A DNA stretch of 64,000 nucleotides from a virus (taxonomy: Duplodnaviria > Caudoviricetes), in the IMG/VR virus record IMGVR_UViG_3300010965_000001, positions 64,001-128,000 of that record; one strand, written 5' to 3'. How positions within the stretch are numbered: position 1 is the stretch's first letter; every line of letters begins with the position of its first letter. Below are positions 33,914-55,811 of the stretch, piece after piece. The notes beneath the pieces are model-generated. The model ran no database searches and was not told the origin of the DNA. It was given only the letters and a program-made list of their open reading frames with translations. Made by a program: the position numbers and the translations under genes.

Positions 33914-34606
33914 TTAAATTGTTAATCTTATAAAAGTACAGTTCAATAAATTTTCAATCTCTTGCTGTCTTTTAAGGTCTTTTTCTTTATGTGACAGATG
34001 ACGTTTCTCATCAACTTCTATCACAACATTTTTTTCTCTGTCATATCCGTCAACCCAGTATCCCAATTTTTCTATATGATACTCTCCGCCATTTTCAGCA
34101 TGTTGAAAGTTATAACCATACTGCTTCCCACACTCTTCAATCAGAAGACATGCCTTTGGATTGTAATTCGGTGCCATACTATTCTGTCGCATCCATTCAC
34201 TTACCGCCAGTCGTTTCTTTCTTTTTGTTTCATCCGAATCTTTTTTACCTAATTTGATTTCTCTCATTTTAAGTTTAGATTCTTCTGTATGTGGTTTTCT
34301 AATCTGTTTAATTCTTGCTTCGCATAATTTCTTATGAGCTTCTTCGGAAATTTTACGGTCTACATTTATTTCACGCAATATCCGTTTTGTTTCCTCAGTA
34401 TGATGCTTACCTAACATACCTTGATGATTTTTTATATTATTTCTAACTTCATCAGTTTGATGTTTTCCGTAAAATGGATTATTTTCACCCAAGTTAGCAC
34501 ATACTTTGCATCTTGTGTTGTTCTGTGTGGCTCGAGCCAATACATATTTATCTCTATATACTTGCTCTACGCCACACTCTGGACAATTCTTTTTATATTC
34601 TATCAT
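33914..34606 (-). mobile_element. free-standing endonuclease: Zn finger + NUMOD3 repeats + Vsr/DUF559-like nuclease
   Basis: CPECG...CKVC; HTEETK/HTEESK repeats; YWVDGYDREKNVVIEVDEKRH. Start at 34606. Confidence 0.75.
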
Positions 34607-34641
34607 CTTATAACCTTTTATAAATATCATCCAACTAAAAA

Positions 34642-38252: not shown

Positions 38253-38725
38253 TGTGCATCTCCTGCTCTAAATTCCTGAATCTGAATCTTGCTCTTACGT
38301 GTCATATGAGCATTACATACAATAGTATAATTCCAATTTTGGTCTTGCTGACCTGCCGCTAAAGTATTTTCATTATAGTTATGAATTTCATAATACTGCC
38401 CATTCCACAATACAATGTCTCCAATTTCAGGATATACATTCTGCGCGCGCAGGATTTCTCTTTGAAAATTCAGTACGATATTTTGATTAACATCGATACC
38501 CATTTCACCATATTCTGCAATTTCAGGGTCATGCGCAATTAATGCATACAGTGTGACTGGTGCGAAATAAATTTTATTAAGCATATCACCATATAAATCG
38601 TCATCACCCATTGAGGACACGGCAAGTTTATACAATTGGATGGGAGTTTCGATAATAGTTTCCACCAATGTATGTGCTATGGTATTAAATAAATCTAAAT
38701 CTCGTTGTCTTAAAAATAGTTGCAT
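38249..38725 (-). CDS. neck/head-completion protein (gp14-like)
   Basis: DLYGD..NK.YF.PV, YPEIGDIV.WNG.YYEI; position after the gp13-like gene. Confidence 0.7.
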   Translation of the reverse strand: MQLFLRQRDLDLFNTIAHTLVETIIETPIQLYKLAVSSMGDDDLYGDMLNKIYFAPVTLYALIAHDPEIAEYGEMGIDVNQNIVLNFQREILRAQNVYPEIGDIVLWNGQYYEIHNYNENTLAAGQQDQNWNYTIVCNAHMTRKSKIQIQEFRAGDAQ

Positions 38726-38736
38726 GTATTTCCTTC

Positions 38737-39897
38737 TTATCCAATGTAAATGAGTAATGGTACATATGATAACTTACCATGTAAATAGTCTGCCTCATTT
38801 TTTTCTTTTTCAAGTTGTGCGTCTCTTGACACTTTCTCAAGATTCTCACGAAGTTGTGCAATTAATTTATCTTTGTCTGCTTGTCCTTCTGTTCGAAGTG
38901 TTGCACCATCCAATGTAAGTTCTGAACCAGGAATTGGAACAGTGGAGTATTTTGAACGAATGTTGCCAAGTAATTCTTTTGATAAAGCCAATGTATATTG
39001 ACGAATCCATTGTCTACCAACATCGTTGATAAATTGATATGTTGGATTGTCAAATTGTGCATTAGAATAGTCCGATGTAACGCCTGTTGGTGATGCAAAA
39101 GAACCACTACCAAGTGCATTATTTCTATCACCAGTTACCATGTAATCAAAATACAATGGATAATCGTATGTAGGAATTGGACTAAGTTTTACCTTGTTAT
39201 TATACATTCTAAATGAGAATGCACTTCTTCGAATCATATCATTAAATTCAATCGACTGCATACGAAGTAAATCTGCGTAAAGGGGCATCAACATAAATGA
39301 TACACCTGTTGAATATCCAGTAAATCCAAATTCCTGTAACATTGAATATGTTCCAAGACCTGTTCCCGCGAATGGGTCAAAGTAACGTGCGATAGCAGGA
39401 ACATTTTGATGATACATTGCACGAATTTCAATTGTTTTTCCACTTTCACTTACTTCTGCCCATGCATTCAAATCATATTCAGTTTGATTACGTCTTACTT
39501 GAATCATGCCTTTTTTAATATCATAGTTTGGACTTACATTTGCTTCTGCTCCATACTGTTGAGAAATTGTAATAGTTCTTCCCATGTTAGGAATAAGTAA
39601 ACGATTTGTCAAATTCGATGAAGTTGGTGAACCTTGAATGTTCAACATATTTTCTCTTATAAGAAACTGATTTATCTGCGCACCATACTCCGTGATTGCT
39701 TCTTCAAAACAAGTGAAGAAAGAACCACTCTGTAATTCGATTTCAACAATCGGATAACCAAGTTTTCGCGCACAGAAATCTGCGACCCGCGGTGCTTCAA
39801 ACACATACAATGGGTCATCTTCGTAAAGCATGAACGGCGTCATTCCAGATGCAGTAAGATACGTTGCACTGCCGTCCCAAATAGGGGTTGTTGCCAT
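38737..39897 (-). CDS. neck/head-tail adaptor protein (gp13-like)
   Basis: LGYPIVEIEL, WIRQYTLALSKELLG.IRSKY...PG..LTLDG..L, ends PLLIYIG. Confidence 0.8.
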   Translation of the reverse strand: MATTPIWDGSATYLTASGMTPFMLYEDDPLYVFEAPRVADFCARKLGYPIVEIELQSGSFFTCFEEAITEYGAQINQFLIRENMLNIQGSPTSSNLTNRLLIPNMGRTITISQQYGAEANVSPNYDIKKGMIQVRRNQTEYDLNAWAEVSESGKTIEIRAMYHQNVPAIARYFDPFAGTGLGTYSMLQEFGFTGYSTGVSFMLMPLYADLLRMQSIEFNDMIRRSAFSFRMYNNKVKLSPIPTYDYPLYFDYMVTGDRNNALGSGSFASPTGVTSDYSNAQFDNPTYQFINDVGRQWIRQYTLALSKELLGNIRSKYSTVPIPGSELTLDGATLRTEGQADKDKLIAQLRENLEKVSRDAQLEKEKNEADYLHGKLSYVPLLIYIG

Positions 39898-39906
39898 GTG
39901 TTATCC

Positions 39907-40083
39907 TTATGGTTTGTATTTTGTTATTTTTCCCAAAATTGTAAAATTTGATTTAGCACCTGTTTGGGTGGTATTGGTCATTTTGGGTGTGAATCCACGT
40001 TCAAATTTATCAGAAAAAAAGTTTGTTATTGATAATTTTGCGAACGGTGATGAGGTTTTCTTGAATATGTCAAGTAATGCCAT
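39907..40083 (-). CDS. 58-aa hypothetical protein missed by the ORF track
   Basis: AGGAG RBS, ATG at 40083, MALLDIFKKTSSPFAKLSITNFFSDKFERGFTPKM...KYKP*; ATATTTATA at 40111-40119. Confidence 0.7.
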   Translation of the reverse strand: MALLDIFKKTSSPFAKLSITNFFSDKFERGFTPKMTNTTQTGAKSNFTILGKITKYKP

Positions 40084-40170
40084 GATTTTCTCCTGTGATG
40101 GTTATTTAGATATAAATATCGGATTGTAGTTAAAAAGTGTTGCTTTATTTAAATTTATAACTAAAATTTA

Positions 40171-40179
40171 ATATTTATA
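40171..40179 (+). promoter_or_regulatory. ATATTTATA element driving the only plus-strand gene
   Basis: Same 9-mer, flipped in orientation together with the gene. A weak TTGCTT-N16-TAAAAT lies just upstream. Confidence 0.65.
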
Positions 40180-40229
40180 GACAATGGTAACGTACCTACA
40201 CAAACACAACTAACAAAGGAGAAATATAA

Positions 40230-42359
40230 ATGAAAAAGATTTTAATCGCAATATTACTTGCGTTAACGGTTCTCACATCGACTGCACATGCTGGTAAGTG
40301 GTTTACTACTTACTACGCGGTGTGGTCTTATCAAGCAGTTGGAACTGCACCAAATTCATGCCCACCGTGGGAAATTGATTGGAATGGACTAACACACATG
40401 GTGTTGTTTGACAATGGAAATGTAACACAGAATCCACCGTATTGGGCGTACATGTTTGCTGGAACTGGAAAACCAAAAAACGGAAATATACAAGCAGGTA
40501 GACCAACTGACACAGAATCGGACTCTACAGAAATTCATTATGCGGGAATTTCAAATCCAGGAAATGGAACGTGGCCTAAGTATTTGGACAGTCTTGTCAC
40601 AATTGGTCACAGAAACAACGTAAGAATGTTTATTACCATTCAAGGAGTAAATCCAACCAATCTAAATGCAATCGCAAATGACTCTGCAAAAGCACAGGTA
40701 TTAGTAAATACACTTGTTGCATGGGCTGAACGAAAAAAGTTTGATGGAGTTGAACTTGATTGGGAAGGGTGGGCTGTTCCACTTCCTCCAACTCCAATCG
40801 TAAGTAGATTTGTCCGTCTGTTGTATAGACGATTACAAACAATGAAAACAGGTCTTGGTGGAAGAGCGCAGTTGCTTGTTGCTGGCGGAAGCAATTATTG
40901 GGATAAGTATGACCCAGAACAAGATTATATGGTTGACCAATACAATTTAATGATGTATGACTACACATTTGCATGGGATGATGCCGCTGCAAGAAATGGA
41001 GTATGGCATATCTCTCCATTATATCATGGATATAAAGGTTCTTCGTACATGGGACTCAAGTGGGATTTCCCAAGTTGGCAAGGTGGTTCGTATGAAGACC
41101 GTGGACCTTTACAGTGGGCACAGAAAGGACATGATATTAAAAAGATGGGAATTGGTATACCGACATATGCAGATGTATACATCGGCACTAAAACCTTTAG
41201 AAGTGGATTCAGTCAAATCATGTCTAATGGTCCATATAAAGTTTATGAAGGACTAAAGTCAATTGGTGGTACAAAGGTTTGGGATGATGCTCAGAAGGTT
41301 GAACATACTTATGGAAGAACAACTGCGGCATATCCTTGGTGGTGGTATCAATCGATTCCTGCCAACACAGACTATTATGCAGTATCAGAAACTCCAGCAT
41401 CAATCGCAATGAAATACGAATGGATAGTTAAGATTGGCGCAGGTGGGGTAATGACATACGATTATTGCAATGACATGAATGGTGCATATCCGAAGGGTGA
41501 CAAACGTAGGCATCCGTTAAATAGAGCAGTAGGTGATGCTATTTTAGGATTGCCACCAACACCAGTTGACAGTTCGATTATTGCTCCTCCAGATACAACG
41601 GCAGTTCCACAACCTCCAGTGGATGGTGGAATGGATGTTACAAGTGATTCTATCTTCGTTGGTAAACAACTTATTACACCGTGGAATTCTGACCGTTCTT
41701 GGGCAATCGGTGTTAATTGGAATGGAGATTCGGCAGTAGTAAATTATTCCGCATGGGGTGGATTACAATTGGCAGTTGGTGGTTGGGATAGATATGTTAT
41801 CGTTGATACTGTTAAATATGACTCAATTAGATTTAACGTAAAGACTGTGGCAGGGAAGAATATTAACATGTTCAGTGGATTCCAAAGTTCAATAGATTCT
41901 GGATACATGCGCATTGATGTGAAATCATTCCCAGTGTCAGATAAATGGGCAACACAAACATTACACATTCCATTCCCTTGGTATATGTTCTATGTACAAG
42001 TATCTGATGGGTCTGTGCAAACAGTTTACTTCGACAACTTTATATTGATTCCAAAAGTTGGTGTGACGCCTCCAGATACAATAAAACCGATACCACCGGC
42101 GTGTGATACGGTATTTGTGACGGACACGGTTATAGTTGCTCCACCACTTAAAACACCAACTGCAAGTATTTCATCTATTCCAGGCACGACATTCTTAATA
42201 TGGAATTCATGTGGAGCAGATGCAGTTAAGATTGATAAGTATGGACCAGTGGCAACGACAGGACATAAGAATGTACTACTTACAAAGACTACTACGTTCG
42301 TATTAACAGCAACGAATAAGGCAGGAAGTGTAAGTGTATCGACAACGATGTTGAAGTAA
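40230..42359 (+). CDS. secreted GH18 (chitinase-like) glycoside hydrolase with CBM-like and Ig-like C-terminal domains
   Basis: Signal peptide ending TAHA|G; IDWNGLTH, FDGVELDWEG, NLMMYDY, KMGIGIPTY, GAGGVMTY; P/T-rich linkers. Confidence 0.88.
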   Translation: MKKILIAILLALTVLTSTAHAGKWFTTYYAVWSYQAVGTAPNSCPPWEIDWNGLTHMVLFDNGNVTQNPPYWAYMFAGTGKPKNGNIQAGRPTDTESDSTEIHYAGISNPGNGTWPKYLDSLVTIGHRNNVRMFITIQGVNPTNLNAIANDSAKAQVLVNTLVAWAERKKFDGVELDWEGWAVPLPPTPIVSRFVRLLYRRLQTMKTGLGGRAQLLVAGGSNYWDKYDPEQDYMVDQYNLMMYDYTFAWDDAAARNGVWHISPLYHGYKGSSYMGLKWDFPSWQGGSYEDRGPLQWAQKGHDIKKMGIGIPTYADVYIGTKTFRSGFSQIMSNGPYKVYEGLKSIGGTKVWDDAQKVEHTYGRTTAAYPWWWYQSIPANTDYYAVSETPASIAMKYEWIVKIGAGGVMTYDYCNDMNGAYPKGDKRRHPLNRAVGDAILGLPPTPVDSSIIAPPDTTAVPQPPVDGGMDVTSDSIFVGKQLITPWNSDRSWAIGVNWNGDSAVVNYSAWGGLQLAVGGWDRYVIVDTVKYDSIRFNVKTVAGKNINMFSGFQSSIDSGYMRIDVKSFPVSDKWATQTLHIPFPWYMFYVQVSDGSVQTVYFDNFILIPKVGVTPPDTIKPIPPACDTVFVTDTVIVAPPLKTPTASISSIPGTTFLIWNSCGADAVKIDKYGPVATTGHKNVLLTKTTTFVLTATNKAGSVSVSTTMLK

Positions 42360-42360
42360 T

Positions 42361-42397
42361 AAAAAGGGAGTGCTCTTGGTAGGGCACTCCCATTTTT
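42361..42397. terminator. bidirectional terminator between the convergent GH18 and T9SS-cargo genes
   Basis: A5-GGGAGTGCTC-TTGGTA-GGGCACTCCC-A-T5. Confidence 0.85.
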
Positions 42398-42401
42398 ATG
42401 C

Positions 42402-43313
42402 TTATTTTATAACTGTAAGTTTCTTCGTTTCTGAAAATTTATCTACGGTAAGACGATATACATACATACCGCTTGTCAAATCTGATGCAAGCAACACTCT
42501 TGAATAATTTCCTGCTGTAAGCGTCTCTGCAACAAGTGTCTTTACTTCTCTACCAGTAATATCAAATACTGTTAATCGTGCAAATCCACTTATTGGAAGT
42601 GTAAACGAAATTGTGGTAGAAGGATTGAACGGATTTGGGTAGTTTTGATTCAATAAGAATACAGAAGGTGCCAATATATTCACTTCAATTTCATCGGAAT
42701 ATGTGAACGCACCATCTCTATCAATCTGCTTCAATCGATACTGAACAGTTCCATTTGCAGTTTTATCAGTAAATGAATAATCCTTTGGTGAACTTGACGT
42801 TCCTGCCCCTGTAACAAATCCAACCTTTGTCCACACACCATCCCTACGTTCGATGTCAAACCCGAAATTATTAGTCTCTGTGGCGGTATTCCAATTAAGT
42901 GTTACGACAGTTCCCTTTGCCTGTGCGGTGAATGATGTAAGTTCAACAGGAAGTGCATCAAATAAAAAGTAATGACTTTGCTCTGAGGAATACCCAATCG
43001 CTTTTGCAGTTATTCTAAAACCATTGTGATATACGGTTGATGCGTTTACCTTTATATCTGTGAATTTTGCAACTCCACTTACGGTAGTTTTCGAAAGTGT
43101 TCCCGACAATGTACCTTCACCGTGAGTTAAACTAAGTGTGACAAGTGCTTCACTATCACCAGAATGCCACTTGTGAATTGCAACGATTGGCTGTTTTGAT
43201 AAGAGAACGTTTGCACTATCTCCGTTAGGTTGCTGGCTAAATTTAAGACTTGAACTGAAAGTAAAAGTCGTAACCATAAGTAACATTGTTAAAAGTTGTA
43301 TAAGTTTCTTCAT
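42402..43313 (-). CDS. secreted Ig-like protein with a type IX secretion (T9SS/Por) type-A C-terminal sorting domain
   Basis: Signal peptide; LKFSQQP...QPIV...GTL...GVAKF Ig-like domain; LPVELTSFTA...YRLKQIDRDG.F.YS domain; FLLNQNYPNPFNPSTTISF...VFDITGREV...SGMYVYRL...KKLTVIK CTD. Confidence 0.9.
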   Translation of the reverse strand: MKKLIQLLTMLLMVTTFTFSSSLKFSQQPNGDSANVLLSKQPIVAIHKWHSGDSEALVTLSLTHGEGTLSGTLSKTTVSGVAKFTDIKVNASTVYHNGFRITAKAIGYSSEQSHYFLFDALPVELTSFTAQAKGTVVTLNWNTATETNNFGFDIERRDGVWTKVGFVTGAGTSSSPKDYSFTDKTANGTVQYRLKQIDRDGAFTYSDEIEVNILAPSVFLLNQNYPNPFNPSTTISFTLPISGFARLTVFDITGREVKTLVAETLTAGNYSRVLLASDLTSGMYVYRLTVDKFSETKKLTVIK

Positions 43314-43424
43314 ATGTTTATCCTTTATATAGTTTTATGATAAGATTGTCTTATCACTTATATAAATATACAAAGAATAAACTTCTGTAAATAGTTAGAA
43401 CTTTCTAATGAACATTAGAAGTTT

Positions 43425-44114
43425 CTAATATTTCCCCTTACTCAAATTCTCTTTCCACGGTAACATTGTCAAATTACTGTATTTTGCTATCTCTTTTGGA
43501 GGTATTCCATTGTCAAATCCACAACGAACTCCTACAATATGGTCTATTTGATATGCACCCTCTACACCGCAACGTCCACGTTTATCAAAATTTTCAAGAA
43601 TTGGATTCTCACGTAATGACTTATATGTCTCTTTCCATACGTCTGCTTTATATCGTTTCCAAATTGGAAATTTCTCTTCATACTCTTCCCATGAGGAGAA
43701 GCCTGCTTTGACGGCGCGCATTTGTTTTATACCATCCTCTGTTATGACATCGTTCCAAGTCTTTTTATATTTGTAATTTGCACATCCGTCACAAATTGCG
43801 TTTATTTTATCCGCACGTTTTCTATTATCATCCCTCGCATAATACAGCACTTTGCCACAGTCAGGACAGTTTCTTGTAAATTTAGCTGGTTCACTTTTCT
43901 TTCGTCGTGCCGTTTGGTCATGATTCGGTTTACGTCCTTTCAATGCCTTGGACAGTTGACTGCGTTGCTTCTTCGAAATAACTTTGCAATTAAGATTTGC
44001 CTTGCCACCGCATGTGCGACCATTTCTAATTGCTCCATCTCTATTACTTTTAGTTGAGTGATAAACAGTACCACCACATTTAGGACATTCTCTCGACCAT
44101 TCTGTAATTTCCAT
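43425..44114 (-). mobile_element. free-standing HNH-type endonuclease with tandem Zn fingers
   Basis: CPKCG..., CPDCG...CDGC; YQIDHIV...NLTMLPWKENLSKG. Confidence 0.7.
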
Positions 44115-44141
44115 AATTTTTTCCTTTTATAGTTGTATTAT

Positions 44142-44170
44142 AATATAAGGAATATTTTGGTTAAAGTCAA
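44142..44170 (-). promoter_or_regulatory. sigma70-type promoter for the HNH gene
   Basis: TTGACT-N17-TATATT immediately after the capsid terminator. Confidence 0.8.
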
Positions 44171-44175
44171 GGCAT

Positions 44176-44205
44176 AAAAAAGGAGAGCGTTTCCGCTCTC
44201 CTTTT
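44176..44205 (-). terminator. major capsid gene terminator
   Basis: GGAGAGCG-GAAA-CGCTCTCC-T6 on the minus strand. Confidence 0.88.
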
Positions 44206-44230
44206 CAAATCTACAACAATTACCACCAGA

Positions 44231-45883
44231 TTAAAGCGTCTGCAATTTGCAGATGACCTTCCCGTAAAACTCAGGGCGAACCATCTTCTTTGCATATCTT
44301 GTGAGCACGCCTTTTCTTGGTGTGAAATTTGACGGGTCATAAACCAACGGTGTCATAACAAGTGGCACGTATGGTGCATAAACCGCACCTGTCTCAAGGA
44401 ACTGCTGTCCACGGAATCCAACGAGGATTGTGTTTTCCAACATGTAAGGATTCTTATAGACGGTGAAGCGGTTGTTGATTGCTCCGACCTTCTGAACACC
44501 CATTGCATATTGCTGTTTGTCGCCATTCGTATCGGCCGAATATCCAGGAATTGACTCAAGGATTGTTGACACTTCTGGTGAACAGACAAGGAAGTTTGCA
44601 CCCCCTCTCATTGTACGCTGATGAATCTTGTTGCTTACCTTCTGAACCTTGGTAATCAACGTCTGATACCAGGTCTGCTGTGTGTATGCAGATGCTGCAT
44701 TAACACTTGAATCCATTTGGAATGTACTCGTACCTGCATCAAAATATTCACCAGTTCTCGCTGACCAATATTCCGTGGTCAATGCGTTTTGAATCAACAT
44801 GTCAAGGATTTCCAAATCGATTTCCATCGAGATGTATTCCGACAACATGCTTGTTAATTCTGCTTCCGCGTCGATTGAATGGAATGCATTCAAGTCTTGC
44901 GCGAATTCAGGTGTCCACACTGCTTTCAACTTACGTGTTTTTGCCACGATAGGAATCGAGCGCATCTCAATGTTGATTTCAGGGATAGCAAGTGTGTCAA
45001 GAATTCCTGAACCCACTGTATCTTCGAAGTCACCACGAGTTGTCTGTGTTGGTTGAACTTGGTACTGAACGTTAATGTCACCACCCGTTGCTGAACCACC
45101 CGAACCTGCAAGTGTACCAGAAACGATAAACTGAACCAATGTATCATTCGATACAAGTTTCGTGTATGCTGGGTAGAATGTTACAACTCTGGTTGCACTT
45201 GAACCACTGATGGTCCATGCACGAACACCATTCATGTCAGCGTTAGCCGATGTGAACGTCGATGCTGCCATCGTGACCTTCTGTAAACCAAATGATGGCT
45301 GTAATATAGAAGCCGAAAGGTTCATGTCATAATTCACATCTGCCCATGATGCTGAGGTAATTGTGAGTGACGATGACGCGAATGCAACACTCGTATCATT
45401 GATTGAATAACCAAAACGACCTGCACCATAAAGACCATTATTGCTAAGTGTCTCAAATGCTGAACCGCTTGTGTTACCGTACAACGATGTCTGCGAGTTG
45501 AAACCAGGCTGGTTGTTGTTATACTTAAAGTCTAAGTAGAACACAAGACCAGATGGAAGACTCATTGGTTGAACCGAAACGAATTCCTTCGAAGCGATTT
45601 CACCGAACACTTTACGAACCAATGGAAGTGCAACACCAGTCCATGCTTCCTGACCTGTGTTACCACCGATTGTTCCTGTGCCCGTTGCGTTTGCTTCTGA
45701 AATCAACTGTTTCGCTTGATTTTCAAGAAGCGTGCTCATTCCGTGCTTATCAAAGTCGGAACCCACACCTTCTAAAAGACCAGACTTTTCCCACTTGTCA
45801 ACAAGCTGTTTGGTCTCGTTAATCTGCTTGCGGTACATACCCTCTGTATTCACAAGTTTTTCTATGCCAGATAATGCGCTCAT
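44231..45883 (-). CDS. major capsid protein (T4 gp23-like)
   Basis: LENQA, LPLVRKVF, VQPMSLPSGLVF, AKTRKLKAVWTPEFAQDL, YAPYVPL, TRYA. Probable maturation site LISE63|A. Confidence 0.97.
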   Translation of the reverse strand: MSALSGIEKLVNTEGMYRKQINETKQLVDKWEKSGLLEGVGSDFDKHGMSTLLENQAKQLISEANATGTGTIGGNTGQEAWTGVALPLVRKVFGEIASKEFVSVQPMSLPSGLVFYLDFKYNNNQPGFNSQTSLYGNTSGSAFETLSNNGLYGAGRFGYSINDTSVAFASSSLTITSASWADVNYDMNLSASILQPSFGLQKVTMAASTFTSANADMNGVRAWTISGSSATRVVTFYPAYTKLVSNDTLVQFIVSGTLAGSGGSATGGDINVQYQVQPTQTTRGDFEDTVGSGILDTLAIPEINIEMRSIPIVAKTRKLKAVWTPEFAQDLNAFHSIDAEAELTSMLSEYISMEIDLEILDMLIQNALTTEYWSARTGEYFDAGTSTFQMDSSVNAASAYTQQTWYQTLITKVQKVSNKIHQRTMRGGANFLVCSPEVSTILESIPGYSADTNGDKQQYAMGVQKVGAINNRFTVYKNPYMLENTILVGFRGQQFLETGAVYAPYVPLVMTPLVYDPSNFTPRKGVLTRYAKKMVRPEFYGKVICKLQTL

Positions 45884-47231: not shown

Positions 47232-47447
47232 TTAGTATTTCTCTTTTGCTTTTGCCTCTGCCGTTTCATATTCATTACGTCTGATTGATGAAATGTGTTT
47301 ACGTCTCTTTTTTGCCGAAGGTTTTTCAAATTCACGATGAAGTTCAAATTCTTCTAATACCTTAAAGTTCTTCATCTTACGTTTGAAATCTTTAAGTGCG
47401 AATTCTAAATTACCATTCTTAACTGCGACTACGATGTTTGTTGCCAT
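47232..47447 (-). CDS. rpsU: phage-encoded ribosomal protein bS21
   Basis: V.VKNGNLEFALKDFKRK......E...HREFEKPSAKKRRK is the bS21 signature. Confidence 0.85.
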   Translation of the reverse strand: MATNIVVAVKNGNLEFALKDFKRKMKNFKVLEEFELHREFEKPSAKKRRKHISSIRRNEYETAEAKAKEKY

Positions 47448-55019: not shown

Positions 55020-55811
55020 TTACTCCAATATTTCTATAAATTCACAATTTAAAAAATTAGTAATTTCCAATTTTCGTTTTTTATCACACTCTTCTTTTCT
55101 TTTGTGGTGTTTTTCGTAATATTCAATAACCACATTCTTTTCTTTGTCATATCCATCTACAAAATATCCAAGTTCTTTGATATGATATTCTCCACCGTTA
55201 AGTGCATGCTGAAAGTTATAACCATGTTCTTTACCATATTGCTCTATAATTTCACATGCTTTTGGATTGAAATTTGGAAATTTAACATTATATTTTTCGG
55301 CGTGTGCAATTGATGCCAATCTTAATTTTTTCCGTGTTTCATCTGATGGAACATTGCCTATGTGCGATATACTCAAATTTTTCTTATGTTCATCAGAAAA
55401 AGTTGTTCCAAGTTGAGAAATACTTATCTTATGTTTAGTTTCTTCCGAACAAGTATGAAAATGTTTTCCAGTCTGAGATATACTCATTTTTTTCTTAGAT
55501 TCTTCAGTATGTACCTTTCCATACATCGGGGCATCAATACCTTTATATTTTCCAAATTTAGATTTTGATATTTTGTCTATAGTTTCTTGTGGCATTCCAT
55601 TTTCAAATTGTTTTTTAGATGCTTCTCTGATTTTTTCCTTAGTTTCTTCTGACCGATGTTTTCCAAAATGTGGATGATTTTCTTTATTCATAAAACGTAT
55701 TTTAGCTGAACAAGATTTACAATTAAAATTATTTGCAATGGATTGGTCACGTATTTCCATTGATTTATATATTATTGGTTTTCCACACGTAGGACAAAGT
55801 TTTTCAAACAT
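55020..55811 (-). mobile_element. free-standing endonuclease (Zn finger + multiple NUMOD3 + Vsr/DUF559-like)
   Basis: CPTCG...CKSC; HRSEETK, HTEESK, SEETK, SDETR repeats; YFVDGYDKEKNVVIEYYEKHH. Confidence 0.75.

Follow-up and report, generated by a model that had tools for sequence, protein, structure and literature searches.

A type IX secretion cargo gene and a GH18 glycosidase gene as a candidate accessory cassette between the capsid and neck genes of a T4-like phage

Gene order and transcription signals at the capsid-neck junction

The window analyzed here is a stretch of 64,000 nucleotides (positions 64,001 to 128,000) of a phage record of 210,562 bp that is 100% complete according to CheckV; coordinates are those of the window unless otherwise noted. 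The genome is T4-like, with a Gp23 capsid protein and sheath, portal, gp15-like, and neck genes. [quoted passage not shown] In gene order, the left-hand border of the interval is the T4-type major capsid protein gene (44231-45883, minus strand; PF07068 Gp23, E = 8e-77). The right-hand border is a 386-aa neck or head-tail adaptor gene (38737-39897, minus strand; phrog_211 head-tail adaptor, E = 3.6e-12), homologs of which come after the capsid gene in most of 80 relatives.

Two further ORFs in the interval, both absent from the preliminary description, lie on the minus strand. Between the capsid gene and the cassette is an HNH-like ORF of 229 aa (43425-44114; phrog_5104, E = 1e-25), probably a mobile endonuclease. 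Just upstream of the neck gene is a conserved 58-aa ORF (39907-40083) whose homolog in the nearest relative (L006), 47% identical, occupies the corresponding place; it is part of the phage backbone and lies outside the cassette.

The promoter-like element ATATTTATA is enriched in the window, with 15 copies where 1.8 are expected, a count that none of 100 shuffles reached. There are 34 copies in the 210-kb genome, their strand agreeing with that of the downstream gene in nearly all cases, and the element is also found upstream of the ribonucleotide reductase and homing-endonuclease genes of this phage. Each cassette gene has its own correctly oriented copy, as had been noted: the GH18 copy (40171-40179, plus strand) precedes the ATG at 40230 by 51 nt and is among only five plus-strand copies genome-wide, and the copy for the cargo gene (43361-43369, minus strand) precedes the one at 43313 by 48 nt. 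A third copy (40111-40119, minus strand), divergent from the GH18 promoter, faces the 58-aa ORF, which starts 28 nt downstream, and the neck operon. The single bidirectional terminator proposed for the two genes is borne out by hairpin scan and folding. The predicted intrinsic terminator (42366-42391) has a GC-rich stem of 11 bp, preceded by an A-run and followed by a T-run. Its folding energies on the two strands are -27.4 and -19.9 kcal/mol (z about -6.5 for either), and on each strand a U-run comes after it.

The block is not a chimera. We checked contig support across it and found that Logan contigs tile positions 38500-45000 at 100% identity and a depth of 5-7; they derive from two runs of a single sample, which is probably the one that was assembled. 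These contigs, built independently by a different assembler, bridge the neck-to-GH18, tag gene-to-HNH, and HNH-to-capsid junctions at even depth. Among RNA runs, we found none that holds the cassette stretch.

A tagged binding protein and an untagged glycosidase

The cargo protein (encoded on the minus strand) ends in what we regard as a genuine type-A T9SS sorting domain, as first proposed. Residues 225-301 of 303 (42411-42641) pass both curated models, TIGR04183 (44.5 bits, cut-off 23) and PF18962 (37 bits, cut-off 27), and are the sole match to a T9SS type-A tag in the whole phage genome. The conserved motifs of the tag are all kept (N-Y-P-N-P-F-N-P, G-x-Y, and a terminal K-x-x-x-x-K): in an alignment with 31 bacterial homologs, there is no variation at N224, P226, N227, P228, F229, N230, P231, G282, and Y284, and conservation is at least 90% at K298 and K303. 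AlphaFold models residues 232-301 as an all-beta, Ig-like fold (pLDDT 89-97), and Foldseek matches of the protein include the C-terminal domain (CTD) of RgpB (5ag8) and PorU (6za2).

The rest of the protein has no catalytic domain, in agreement with the preliminary description, and consists instead of binding-type modules. An FN3-like "LPVELTSFTA" domain (residues about 122-215; 42669-42950) is modeled by AlphaFold with pLDDT >90 over residues 125-212. It is preceded by an Ig-like domain (residues about 20-120; 42954-43256), for which the Atlas model of residues 20-125 gives TM scores of 0.82-0.86 to Big_1/invasin-type Ig domains; in our own AlphaFold model the domain has pLDDT <50. The first 20 or so residues (43254-43313) have the features of a Sec signal peptide: MKK, a 16-residue hydrophobic stretch, and then Ser-rich small residues, with residues 2-16 predicted to be helical.

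The GH18 assignment is secure (residues 28-415 against PF00704, E = 5e-21, 76.1 bits, gathering cut-off 29.6). The protein comprises a leader (1-21), a catalytic domain (about 24-445), a binding-module-like domain (about 481-605), and an I-set-like Ig domain (about 620-709), with Pro-rich linkers before and after the binding-module-like domain. In the catalytic motif D172-G-V-E175-L-D177-W-E179, residues D172, D177, and the general acid E179 are kept, and the motif aligns with the FDG(L/F)DLDWE of chitotriosidase and a nematode chitinase. Glu replaces the middle Asp of DxxDxDxE, and this is invariant in an 11-member clade and is also the consensus of 44 homologs. AlphaFold predicts a (beta/alpha)8 barrel with the chitinase insertion domain (pLDDT >90, residues 24-445), with Foldseek TM scores (by target) of 0.75-0.80 to chitotriosidase, AMCase, and bacterial and insect chitinases. 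The GH18 is thus a real member of its family with an intact predicted active site, and it looks active. Its subfamily is small, with 348 relatives among 1.84 billion representatives.

With Pfam, the tail of the GH18 gave no match even at E <= 10, and an NCBIfam scan of the protein at E <= 0.01 gave only a weak ChiD match and no TIGR04183, TIGR04131, or NF033708. The tail domains resemble Ig repeats and GH18-plus-tag proteins, the last one matching I-set-like Ig repeats. The GH18 itself has no T9SS sorting domain of type A, B, or C, a tag that 13 of 43 bacterial homologs carry. Its leader, with MKK, a hydrophobic helix, small residues, and AHA|G, is predicted to be helical at residues 2-18; the hydrophobic helices of the two leaders, both judged from sequence, are 15-17 residues long. 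The Sec signal peptides ascribed to both proteins are therefore supported by leader features in sequence and by N-terminal helices in AlphaFold. The description of the GH18 as a secreted hydrolase holds for the hydrolase and its Sec leader, but "secreted" needs care: a protein that carries a Sec leader but lacks a T9SS tag would, in a diderm host, be expected to halt in the periplasm unless lysis or another route frees it.

Bacterial origin and residence in a phage hot spot

Both genes trace to Ignavibacteria-like bacteria of the FCB group. The module of FN3-like domain and type-A tag is 50-57% identical to thousands of Ignavibacteria/Bacteroidota proteins, and the phylogeny called for in the preliminary description places the GH18, on a long branch, inside a bacterial clade with 100/100 support. 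The four bacterial genomes that have the closest relatives of both the GH18 and the tag module all encode the sortase PorU above cut-off and have from 65 to >150 copies of the tag module each, the best being 54% identical to that of the phage. Since even the closest bacterial homologs of the cassette proteins share no more than 45-57% identity with them and belong to high-GC genomes, the true donor is unsampled. A search of 5.8 billion proteins gave no close copy of either cassette protein, and neither matches any PHROG family.

In composition, the two genes are typical of the phage. Ranked by codon-usage distance among the long genes of the phage, they stand at the 23rd and 71st percentiles, and their GC3 values are 0.29 and 0.26, compared with 0.64-0.85 in the bacterial homolog genes. 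The GC content of the cassette is within the phage range and about 20 points below that of the bacterial homologs. The phage-like codon usage and GC3 imply long residence under purifying selection. Together with the phage promoter-like motifs, the codon usage favors domestication over recent pick-up, as had been suggested.

The site itself is hypervariable. Across the 80 relatives the capsid-to-neck gap ranges from 0.13 to 7.5 kb, and its contents include homing endonucleases, PhoH, an endolysin, and another T9SS-tagged protein. In the nearest relative, a homing endonuclease of 526 aa occupies the site; in a second relative (L067) a homolog of the HNH-like ORF is the sole gene between capsid and neck genes; and in a third (L019) the site holds an endolysin (PG_binding_1 plus GH19). 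The cassette is a singleton: a synteny check found it in none of the 80 relatives, so that any selection for it is putative. T9SS-tagged genes as such recur in the T4-like clade, where two other T4-like relatives carry different ones, and in IMG/VR, where at least 146 stretches have relatives of the tag module.

These observations bear on whether the two genes are neutral passengers, dragged into a recombination hot spot by, for example, homing-endonuclease activity and persisting without benefit. The restriction of the cassette to this phage, the HNH-like ORF adjoining it, the endonuclease at the site in the nearest relative, and the lack of PHROG matches would all fit such an account. However, both ORFs are intact with their catalytic and sorting motifs all kept, codon usage and GC3 are fully phage-like and far from those of the bacterial homologs, each gene has a promoter-like motif and the pair a common insulating terminator, and T9SS-tagged genes recur in related phages. 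We therefore consider neutral carriage unlikely.

Candidate functions and comparison with known systems

We favor the reading, at a probability of about 0.6, that the two genes are a genuine accessory ("moron" or AMG-like) cassette of a complete T4-like phage whose host would be an FCB bacterium, probably Ignavibacteria-like, with a T9SS. Both genes would have been taken from an FCB-type bacterium into the hypervariable site and then adapted to the phage through codon usage, one promoter-like element each, and a two-way terminator that would insulate the cassette from the neck operon. During infection, host Sec would export both pre-proteins. On the established T9SS pathway, the host machinery would recognize the type-A CTD of the cargo and move the protein across the outer membrane; a PorU-type sortase would cut off the tag, and the Ig-like plus FN3-like remainder, which could act by binding only, would be released or glycolipid-anchored on the infected cell. 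The GH18 would remain in the periplasm, reaching the outside only at lysis or via another route, and may cleave a beta-1,4-GlcNAc-containing polymer. The most likely benefit is a remodeling of the cell surface or of the surrounding glycan matrix. The masking of receptors, competition for the T9SS, and an adhesin role, put forward in the preliminary description, are further candidate functions. FCB bacteria use type IX secretion to build their surface coat, their gliding machinery, and their arsenal for degrading polysaccharides, and phage cargo put into it could alter what an infected cell displays or digests.

The GH18 family includes lysozyme and peptidoglycan endo-N-acetylglucosaminidase activities in CAZy, and the enzyme might instead belong to a lysis module, as a Sec-exported, holin-independent cell-wall hydrolase, the tagged protein being unrelated or helping to breach the outer membrane. 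The Sec leader without a T9SS tag would put the enzyme in the periplasm near peptidoglycan, one relative has an endolysin in the same hot spot, and most viral CAZymes serve lysis according to a soil-virus preprint (10.1101/2024.12.20.629349). We nevertheless rejected the GH18 as the phage endolysin. The phage already has an SLT-domain lysin candidate in a separate ORF (genome position 164982-165350); we found no T4-lysozyme or GH19 homolog, and no holin or spanin adjoins the GH18 gene, the flanks being neck genes, the cargo gene, and the HNH-like ORF. The predicted fold is that of a deep-cleft chitinase with an insertion domain, the 280-residue binding tail is atypical of endolysins from phages of diderm hosts, and the relatives in bacteria are extracellular enzymes of modular build that carry FN3, Ig, and T9SS tags. 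A role in lysis is accordingly improbable.

Perhaps the most intriguing, if quite doubtful, proposal is that a host design of enzyme and T9SS tag in one protein has been divided by the phage between two genes, the tagged Ig/FN3 protein acting in trans to ferry the GH18 to the surface of the infected cell or anchor it there, or occupying the T9SS or a surface receptor against competing phages. If true, a virus would here for the first time be seen to reprogram type IX secretion, not merely to use it. Taken as a rival to the accessory cassette proper, such use of the tag in trans (binding of the GH18 by the tagged protein and its carriage or anchoring via the T9SS, or a block of the T9SS or receptor that excludes superinfecting phage) is a long shot. 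It would account for a GH18 without the tag that some homologs carry, a neighbor with little beyond binding domains and a tag, and the presence of both within one insulated cassette. The genes are, however, convergent and not co-transcribed, and no other locus pairs the GH18 and cargo families.

In T4, hoc is downstream of the capsid gene, and Hoc is an Ig-domain capsid decoration that binds capsids in the cytoplasm. The cargo gene, likewise downstream of the capsid gene, also encodes tandem Ig/FN3-type sandwiches; such domains are common on phage structural proteins, and FN3-like-domain genes occur among neck and sheath genes in two other T4-like contigs (L213 and L241). Yet Hoc has neither export leader nor T9SS tag; here the two would take the protein out of the cytoplasm, the site of virion assembly, and it lacks a PHROG structural match and is missing from the 80 relatives that retain the structural genes. 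We rejected a Hoc-like decoration of capsid or neck on the leader and tag and on this absence, and rate virion decoration as very unlikely. An assembly chimera or host contamination, which might be suspected from bacterial-type proteins unique to this contig and from the low coverage (about 5-7x), can be practically discounted given the bridging contigs, the phage-like codon usage and GC, and the phage-specific motifs before both genes.

On the accessory-cassette reading, the junction between capsid and neck genes emerges, in a large clade of environmental T4-like phages, as a landing site for host-interaction genes, and the locus is a clean candidate for a first experiment: a complete genome, a small, well-folded cargo with a textbook tag, and an untagged chitinase-type neighbor. 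Family 18 chitinases with an alpha+beta insertion domain (human chitotriosidase, 1HKK and 4WJX; AMCase, 3FXY; Bacillus circulans ChiA1, 1ITX) have the fold predicted for this neighbor (TM 0.69-0.80 by target) and a catalytic motif that aligns with its own, but are only 15-19% identical to it, and the change of the middle Asp to Glu is a subfamily-wide trait. As in viral auxiliary chitinase genes, a virus carries a chitinase-family gene that may widen the host's use of polysaccharides. The soil survey lists 14 GH18 genes among 1.43 million viral genes (bioRxiv 10.1101/2024.12.20.629349), and the proven viral chitinase, which supports host growth on chitin, is a prophage GH19 (ISME J 2025, PMC11788074). 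That enzyme belongs to a temperate phage, whereas the GH18 here comes from a presumably lytic phage of the T4-like type and has a T9SS cargo gene as its partner.

A further parallel is found in the secreted CAZymes of Ignavibacteria and Bacteroidota, such as those with SP-GH-CBM-FN3-Por architecture described for Melioribacter roseus (Kadnikov et al. 2013, PMC3534657). Members of the GH18 clade often bear FN3, Ig, and Por_Secre_tail, domain types also among those that Kadnikov et al. list for secreted CAZymes; the difference is that in the phage two separate genes, convergently oriented, encode the enzyme and the FN3-plus-tag module.

The preliminary description knew of no phage T9SS-cargo system, and this claim does not stand. 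The cassette is preceded by "Cryophage" (MT820023), a 76-kb Bacteroidetes phage with three T9SS type-A cargo genes, for which a hijack of the T9SS was proposed that would add enzymatic capacity, serve competition, or exclude superinfecting phages (Bellas et al. 2020, Nat Commun 11:4403, PMC7468147), and the matches in IMG/VR point the same way. Phage use of the host T9SS is, on the sequence evidence, probable here and not unprecedented, the precedent being this one paper together with metagenomic matches. Both are uncultivated phages of FCB hosts, known from sequence, with type-A-tagged genes in flexible, variable regions. The Cryophage cargo, however, consists of an endoglucanase, a GH39, and a PA14-domain protein, whereas here, in the capsid-neck hot spot of a 210-kb T4-like myovirus, the tagged protein is non-enzymatic and it is the neighboring glycosidase that is untagged.

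A two-gene insert at the capsid-neck junction

The phage is a T4-like myovirus, and its single IMG/VR virus record of 210,562 bp, of which the window forms positions 64001-128000, is rated 100% complete by CheckV. A Gp23-type major capsid gene lies at 44231-45883 on the minus strand (PF07068, E = 8e-77), and further T4-like structural genes encode a gp15-like tail-sheath stabiliser, head-tail adaptor, sheath, portal, and baseplate hub. Nearly every gene is carried on the minus strand. In minus-strand order, the capsid gene is followed by an HNH-like ORF (43425-44114, minus; phrog_5104), the 303-aa T9SS-tagged gene (42402-43313, minus), the opposite-strand 709-aa GH18 gene (40230-42359, plus), a conserved 58-aa ORF, and the neck genes. 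Between the two convergent genes, a hairpin at 42366-42391 folds strongly on either strand and has a U-run after it on each. The head module also encodes a ribosomal protein bS21 (47232-47447, minus; PF01165, 51 bits), just upstream of the scaffold gene; among 5.8 billion proteins this phage bS21 has only one other relative, at 87% identity.

Scaffold, capsid, gap, neck, and gp15-like follow one another in this same order in 80 IMG/VR relatives with capsid proteins 56%-75% identical. The capsid-neck gap itself varies among them from ~130 bp to 7.5 kb, and here spans 39898-44230. Synteny of the cassette did not extend to these relatives: neither this GH18 nor this tagged protein is found in any of the 80. 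In the nearest relative, the gap is occupied by a homing endonuclease of 526 aa, and another has the HNH-like ORF alone. In a third (L019), the gap holds PhoH, unknown genes, a gene for a different T9SS-tagged protein (635 aa, its tag scoring above cut-off), and an endolysin of family GH19. Across a large environmental clade of T4-like phages, the capsid-neck junction is thus a hypervariable hot spot for insertions.

The tagged protein and the GH18 enzyme

In the 303-aa protein, residues 225-301 score above the cut-offs of the two curated models of the type-A sorting domain (TIGR04183, 44.5 bits against 23; PF18962, 37 against 27), and all hallmark positions of the tag are kept in an alignment with 31 bacterial homologs, so the assignment made in the preliminary description holds. 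It is the sole sorting domain of this type in the whole phage genome. AlphaFold models an FN3-like sandwich (residues 125-212) and the tag (232-301) with pLDDT >90, and structural matches of the protein include PorU and the RgpB C-terminal domain. The N-domain (residues 19-115) has pLDDT <50 in AlphaFold and no meaningful Pfam match at E ≤ 10; in the model that the ESM Atlas gives for this sequence, the N-terminus has a TM score of 0.82-0.86 to Big_1/invasin-type Ig domains. Since the N-terminal 100 residues are seen only in the Atlas model, the label "Ig-like" is reasonable but less firm; this domain and the tail of the GH18 protein are assigned from the Atlas model and sequence matches, which are weaker evidence. 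Profile searches find no catalytic family in the 303-aa protein, in agreement with the earlier view of a cargo lacking a recognisable catalytic domain. Judged by these matches, it qualifies as a bona fide candidate for T9SS cargo, and its only domains besides the tag are of the binding kind.

The 709-aa protein matches the GH18 family at 76 bits (cut-off 29.6). Its motif D-G-V-E-L-D-W-E retains both catalytic residues, Asp and Glu; the Glu at the centre of the motif is a clade-wide trait. The modelled fold is that of a chitinase with a deep cleft and an insertion domain. The tail (residues 455-709) has pLDDT <50 in AlphaFold and no meaningful Pfam match at E ≤ 10; sequence matches place in it one domain common to GH18 proteins with a C-terminal T9SS tag, followed by a terminal I-set-like Ig domain. 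Por_Secre_tail is present in 13 of 43 bacterial GH18 homologs, and profile scans of the phage protein find no T9SS tag of type A, B, or C. The predicted product is an exported, chitinase-type enzyme without a tag. It had been described as secreted: the Sec leader stands, but with that leader only and no tag the enzyme would be expected to remain periplasmic unless freed by lysis or another route.

From established pathway knowledge, the 303-aa protein would undergo Sec export, followed by T9SS passage and PorU processing, and the GH18 enzyme would reach the periplasm and be released at lysis. An attractive idea is that the tagged protein acts in trans, as a carrier of the tag-less GH18. A complex prediction for GH18 residues 22-709 with tagged-protein residues 20-303 scored 0.00 and gave no answer, and is evidence neither way. 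The idea that the GH18 is the phage's endolysin is weakened by a separate lysin candidate elsewhere in the genome.

This candidate, an ORF of 208 aa outside the window (whole-genome coordinates G000:C1:164982-165350, minus), has an SLT lytic-transglycosylase domain scoring 38.8 bits and is likely the phage's own wall hydrolase. Searches of the phage for a T4-lysozyme or GH19 homolog found none.

Integration into the phage and bacterial origin

The window contains 15 copies of the element ATATTTATA, where 1.8 would be expected, and the whole genome contains 34 (29 minus, five plus). The window copies lie at 772, 5625, 17218, 22126, 23425, 31225, 32264, 34619, 37387, 40111, 43361, 55835, and 62406 on the minus strand and at 40171 and 49201 on the plus strand, and nearly all of the 34 genome copies are 4-50 nt upstream of a start codon on the same strand. 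GH18, among the few plus-strand genes, is preceded at 51 nt by a copy on its own strand, and the tag gene at 48 nt by a copy on the minus strand; computed from the genome copies, the chance of a correctly oriented element in one given 60-nt window is ~0.005. For several copies, just 4-12 nt separate the end of the element from the start codon, a hint that some of the mRNAs behind them lack a leader or have a very short one; no RNA sequencing run containing the stretch is listed. Reverse-complementing ATATTTATA, as read in gene direction, gives exactly the T4 late-promoter consensus TATAAATA(T). The genes behind it are structural, nucleotide-metabolism, and homing-endonuclease alike. Since ribonucleotide reductase is among them, as are a polymerase-like ORF and homing-endonuclease-like ORFs, the label of late promoter was rejected; we call it a phage promoter-like element, without assigning a temporal class. 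Two homing-endonuclease-like ORFs (33914-34630 and 55020-55811, both minus; phrog_314), among tail and portal genes, each stand directly behind their own copy.

A chimeric host insert, raised in the preliminary description, is contradicted by Logan contigs from two runs of one sample, probably the source of the assembly. Together these contigs cover 38500-45000, with 100% identity and a depth of 5-7, and single contigs span neck-to-GH18, tag gene-to-HNH, and HNH-to-capsid. The GC content of the cassette (0.38-0.42) is inside the phage range, and the synonymous codon usage of its two genes falls at the 23rd and 71st percentiles among the phage's own long genes. Their GC3 values are 0.29 and 0.26, compared with 0.64-0.85 in the closest bacterial GH18 genes, which are also much farther from the phage in codon usage. 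The cassette is neither an artefact nor a recent acquisition. Phage-like codon usage and the ATATTTATA copies before both genes bear out the proposal of domestication rather than recent hitch-hiking, and every component first described (hydrolase, sorting domain, two-strand hairpin, and oriented elements) is present.

In the phylogeny, the phage GH18 sits on a long branch nested within bacterial and metagenomic proteins, in a clade with 100/100 support. This subfamily is small, with 348 relatives among 1.84 billion representatives (24 below 1e-30). Searching 185,579 species genomes with an 11-sequence alignment, we found close copies (45%-47% identity) in two MAGs only and more distant copies in Ignavibacteriota MAGs. 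The FN3-like plus tag module has 50%-57% identity to thousands of proteins, whose named carriers are mostly Ignavibacteriales or unclassified Bacteroidota; an SP-GH-CBM-FN3-Por architecture has been documented for CAZymes of Ignavibacteria (PMC3534657). All four genomes with the closest GH18 have a PorU-type sortase above cut-off and 65 to >150 copies of the module (best 54% identity). A single kind of T9SS-bearing bacterium could therefore have donated both genes, and this kind is the likeliest type of host. The cassette is a real, well-adapted, host-derived, two-gene accessory unit.

The genome JBLMZA01 ("Acidobacteriota bacterium MAG215"; L094/L095) carries PorU-type sortase pieces above cut-off and ~139 copies of the FCB-type FN3-plus-T9SS tag module; either its assignment to that phylum is questionable or T9SS cargo is not confined to the FCB group.

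Related genes in other phages

GH18 is rare in viral catalogues (14 of 1.43 million genes; bioRxiv 10.1101/2024.12.20.629349), and the phage GH18 had no match among GenBank phages (tblastn) or in a pattern scan of IMG/VR. Among GenBank phages, the tagged protein matched only through its FN3-like domain, in four huge phages, whose matching ORFs failed the CTD models. The same FN3-like domain occurs in a secreted Cys-rich family of 236-239 aa (L213:5926-6645 and L090:2402-3112, the latter from LR756502.1), with 63% identity between a T4-like contig, where it lies directly upstream of a neck gene, and a 642-kb huge phage. Its short C-terminal tail fails the CTD models.

Mini T9SS-tagged ORFs of 141-144 aa, hardly more than the tag, occur far from the capsid gene in three other T4-like contigs (L086, at G026:C1:24736-24936; L088; and L089), one above cut-off and two below.

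The preliminary description knew of no phage T9SS-cargo system, a claim that must be withdrawn. Tags above cut-off occur in two of 50 contigs of this T4-like clade, and no fewer than 146 relatives of the tag module turned up when IMG/VR was scanned with two short patterns; three of five large contigs tested from this set are near-complete T4-like genomes. In addition, variable regions of Cryophage encode an endoglucanase, a GH39, and a PA14 protein, all three of them T9SS type-A cargo, for which host-system hijacking and superinfection exclusion have been proposed (Bellas et al. 2020, PMC7468147).
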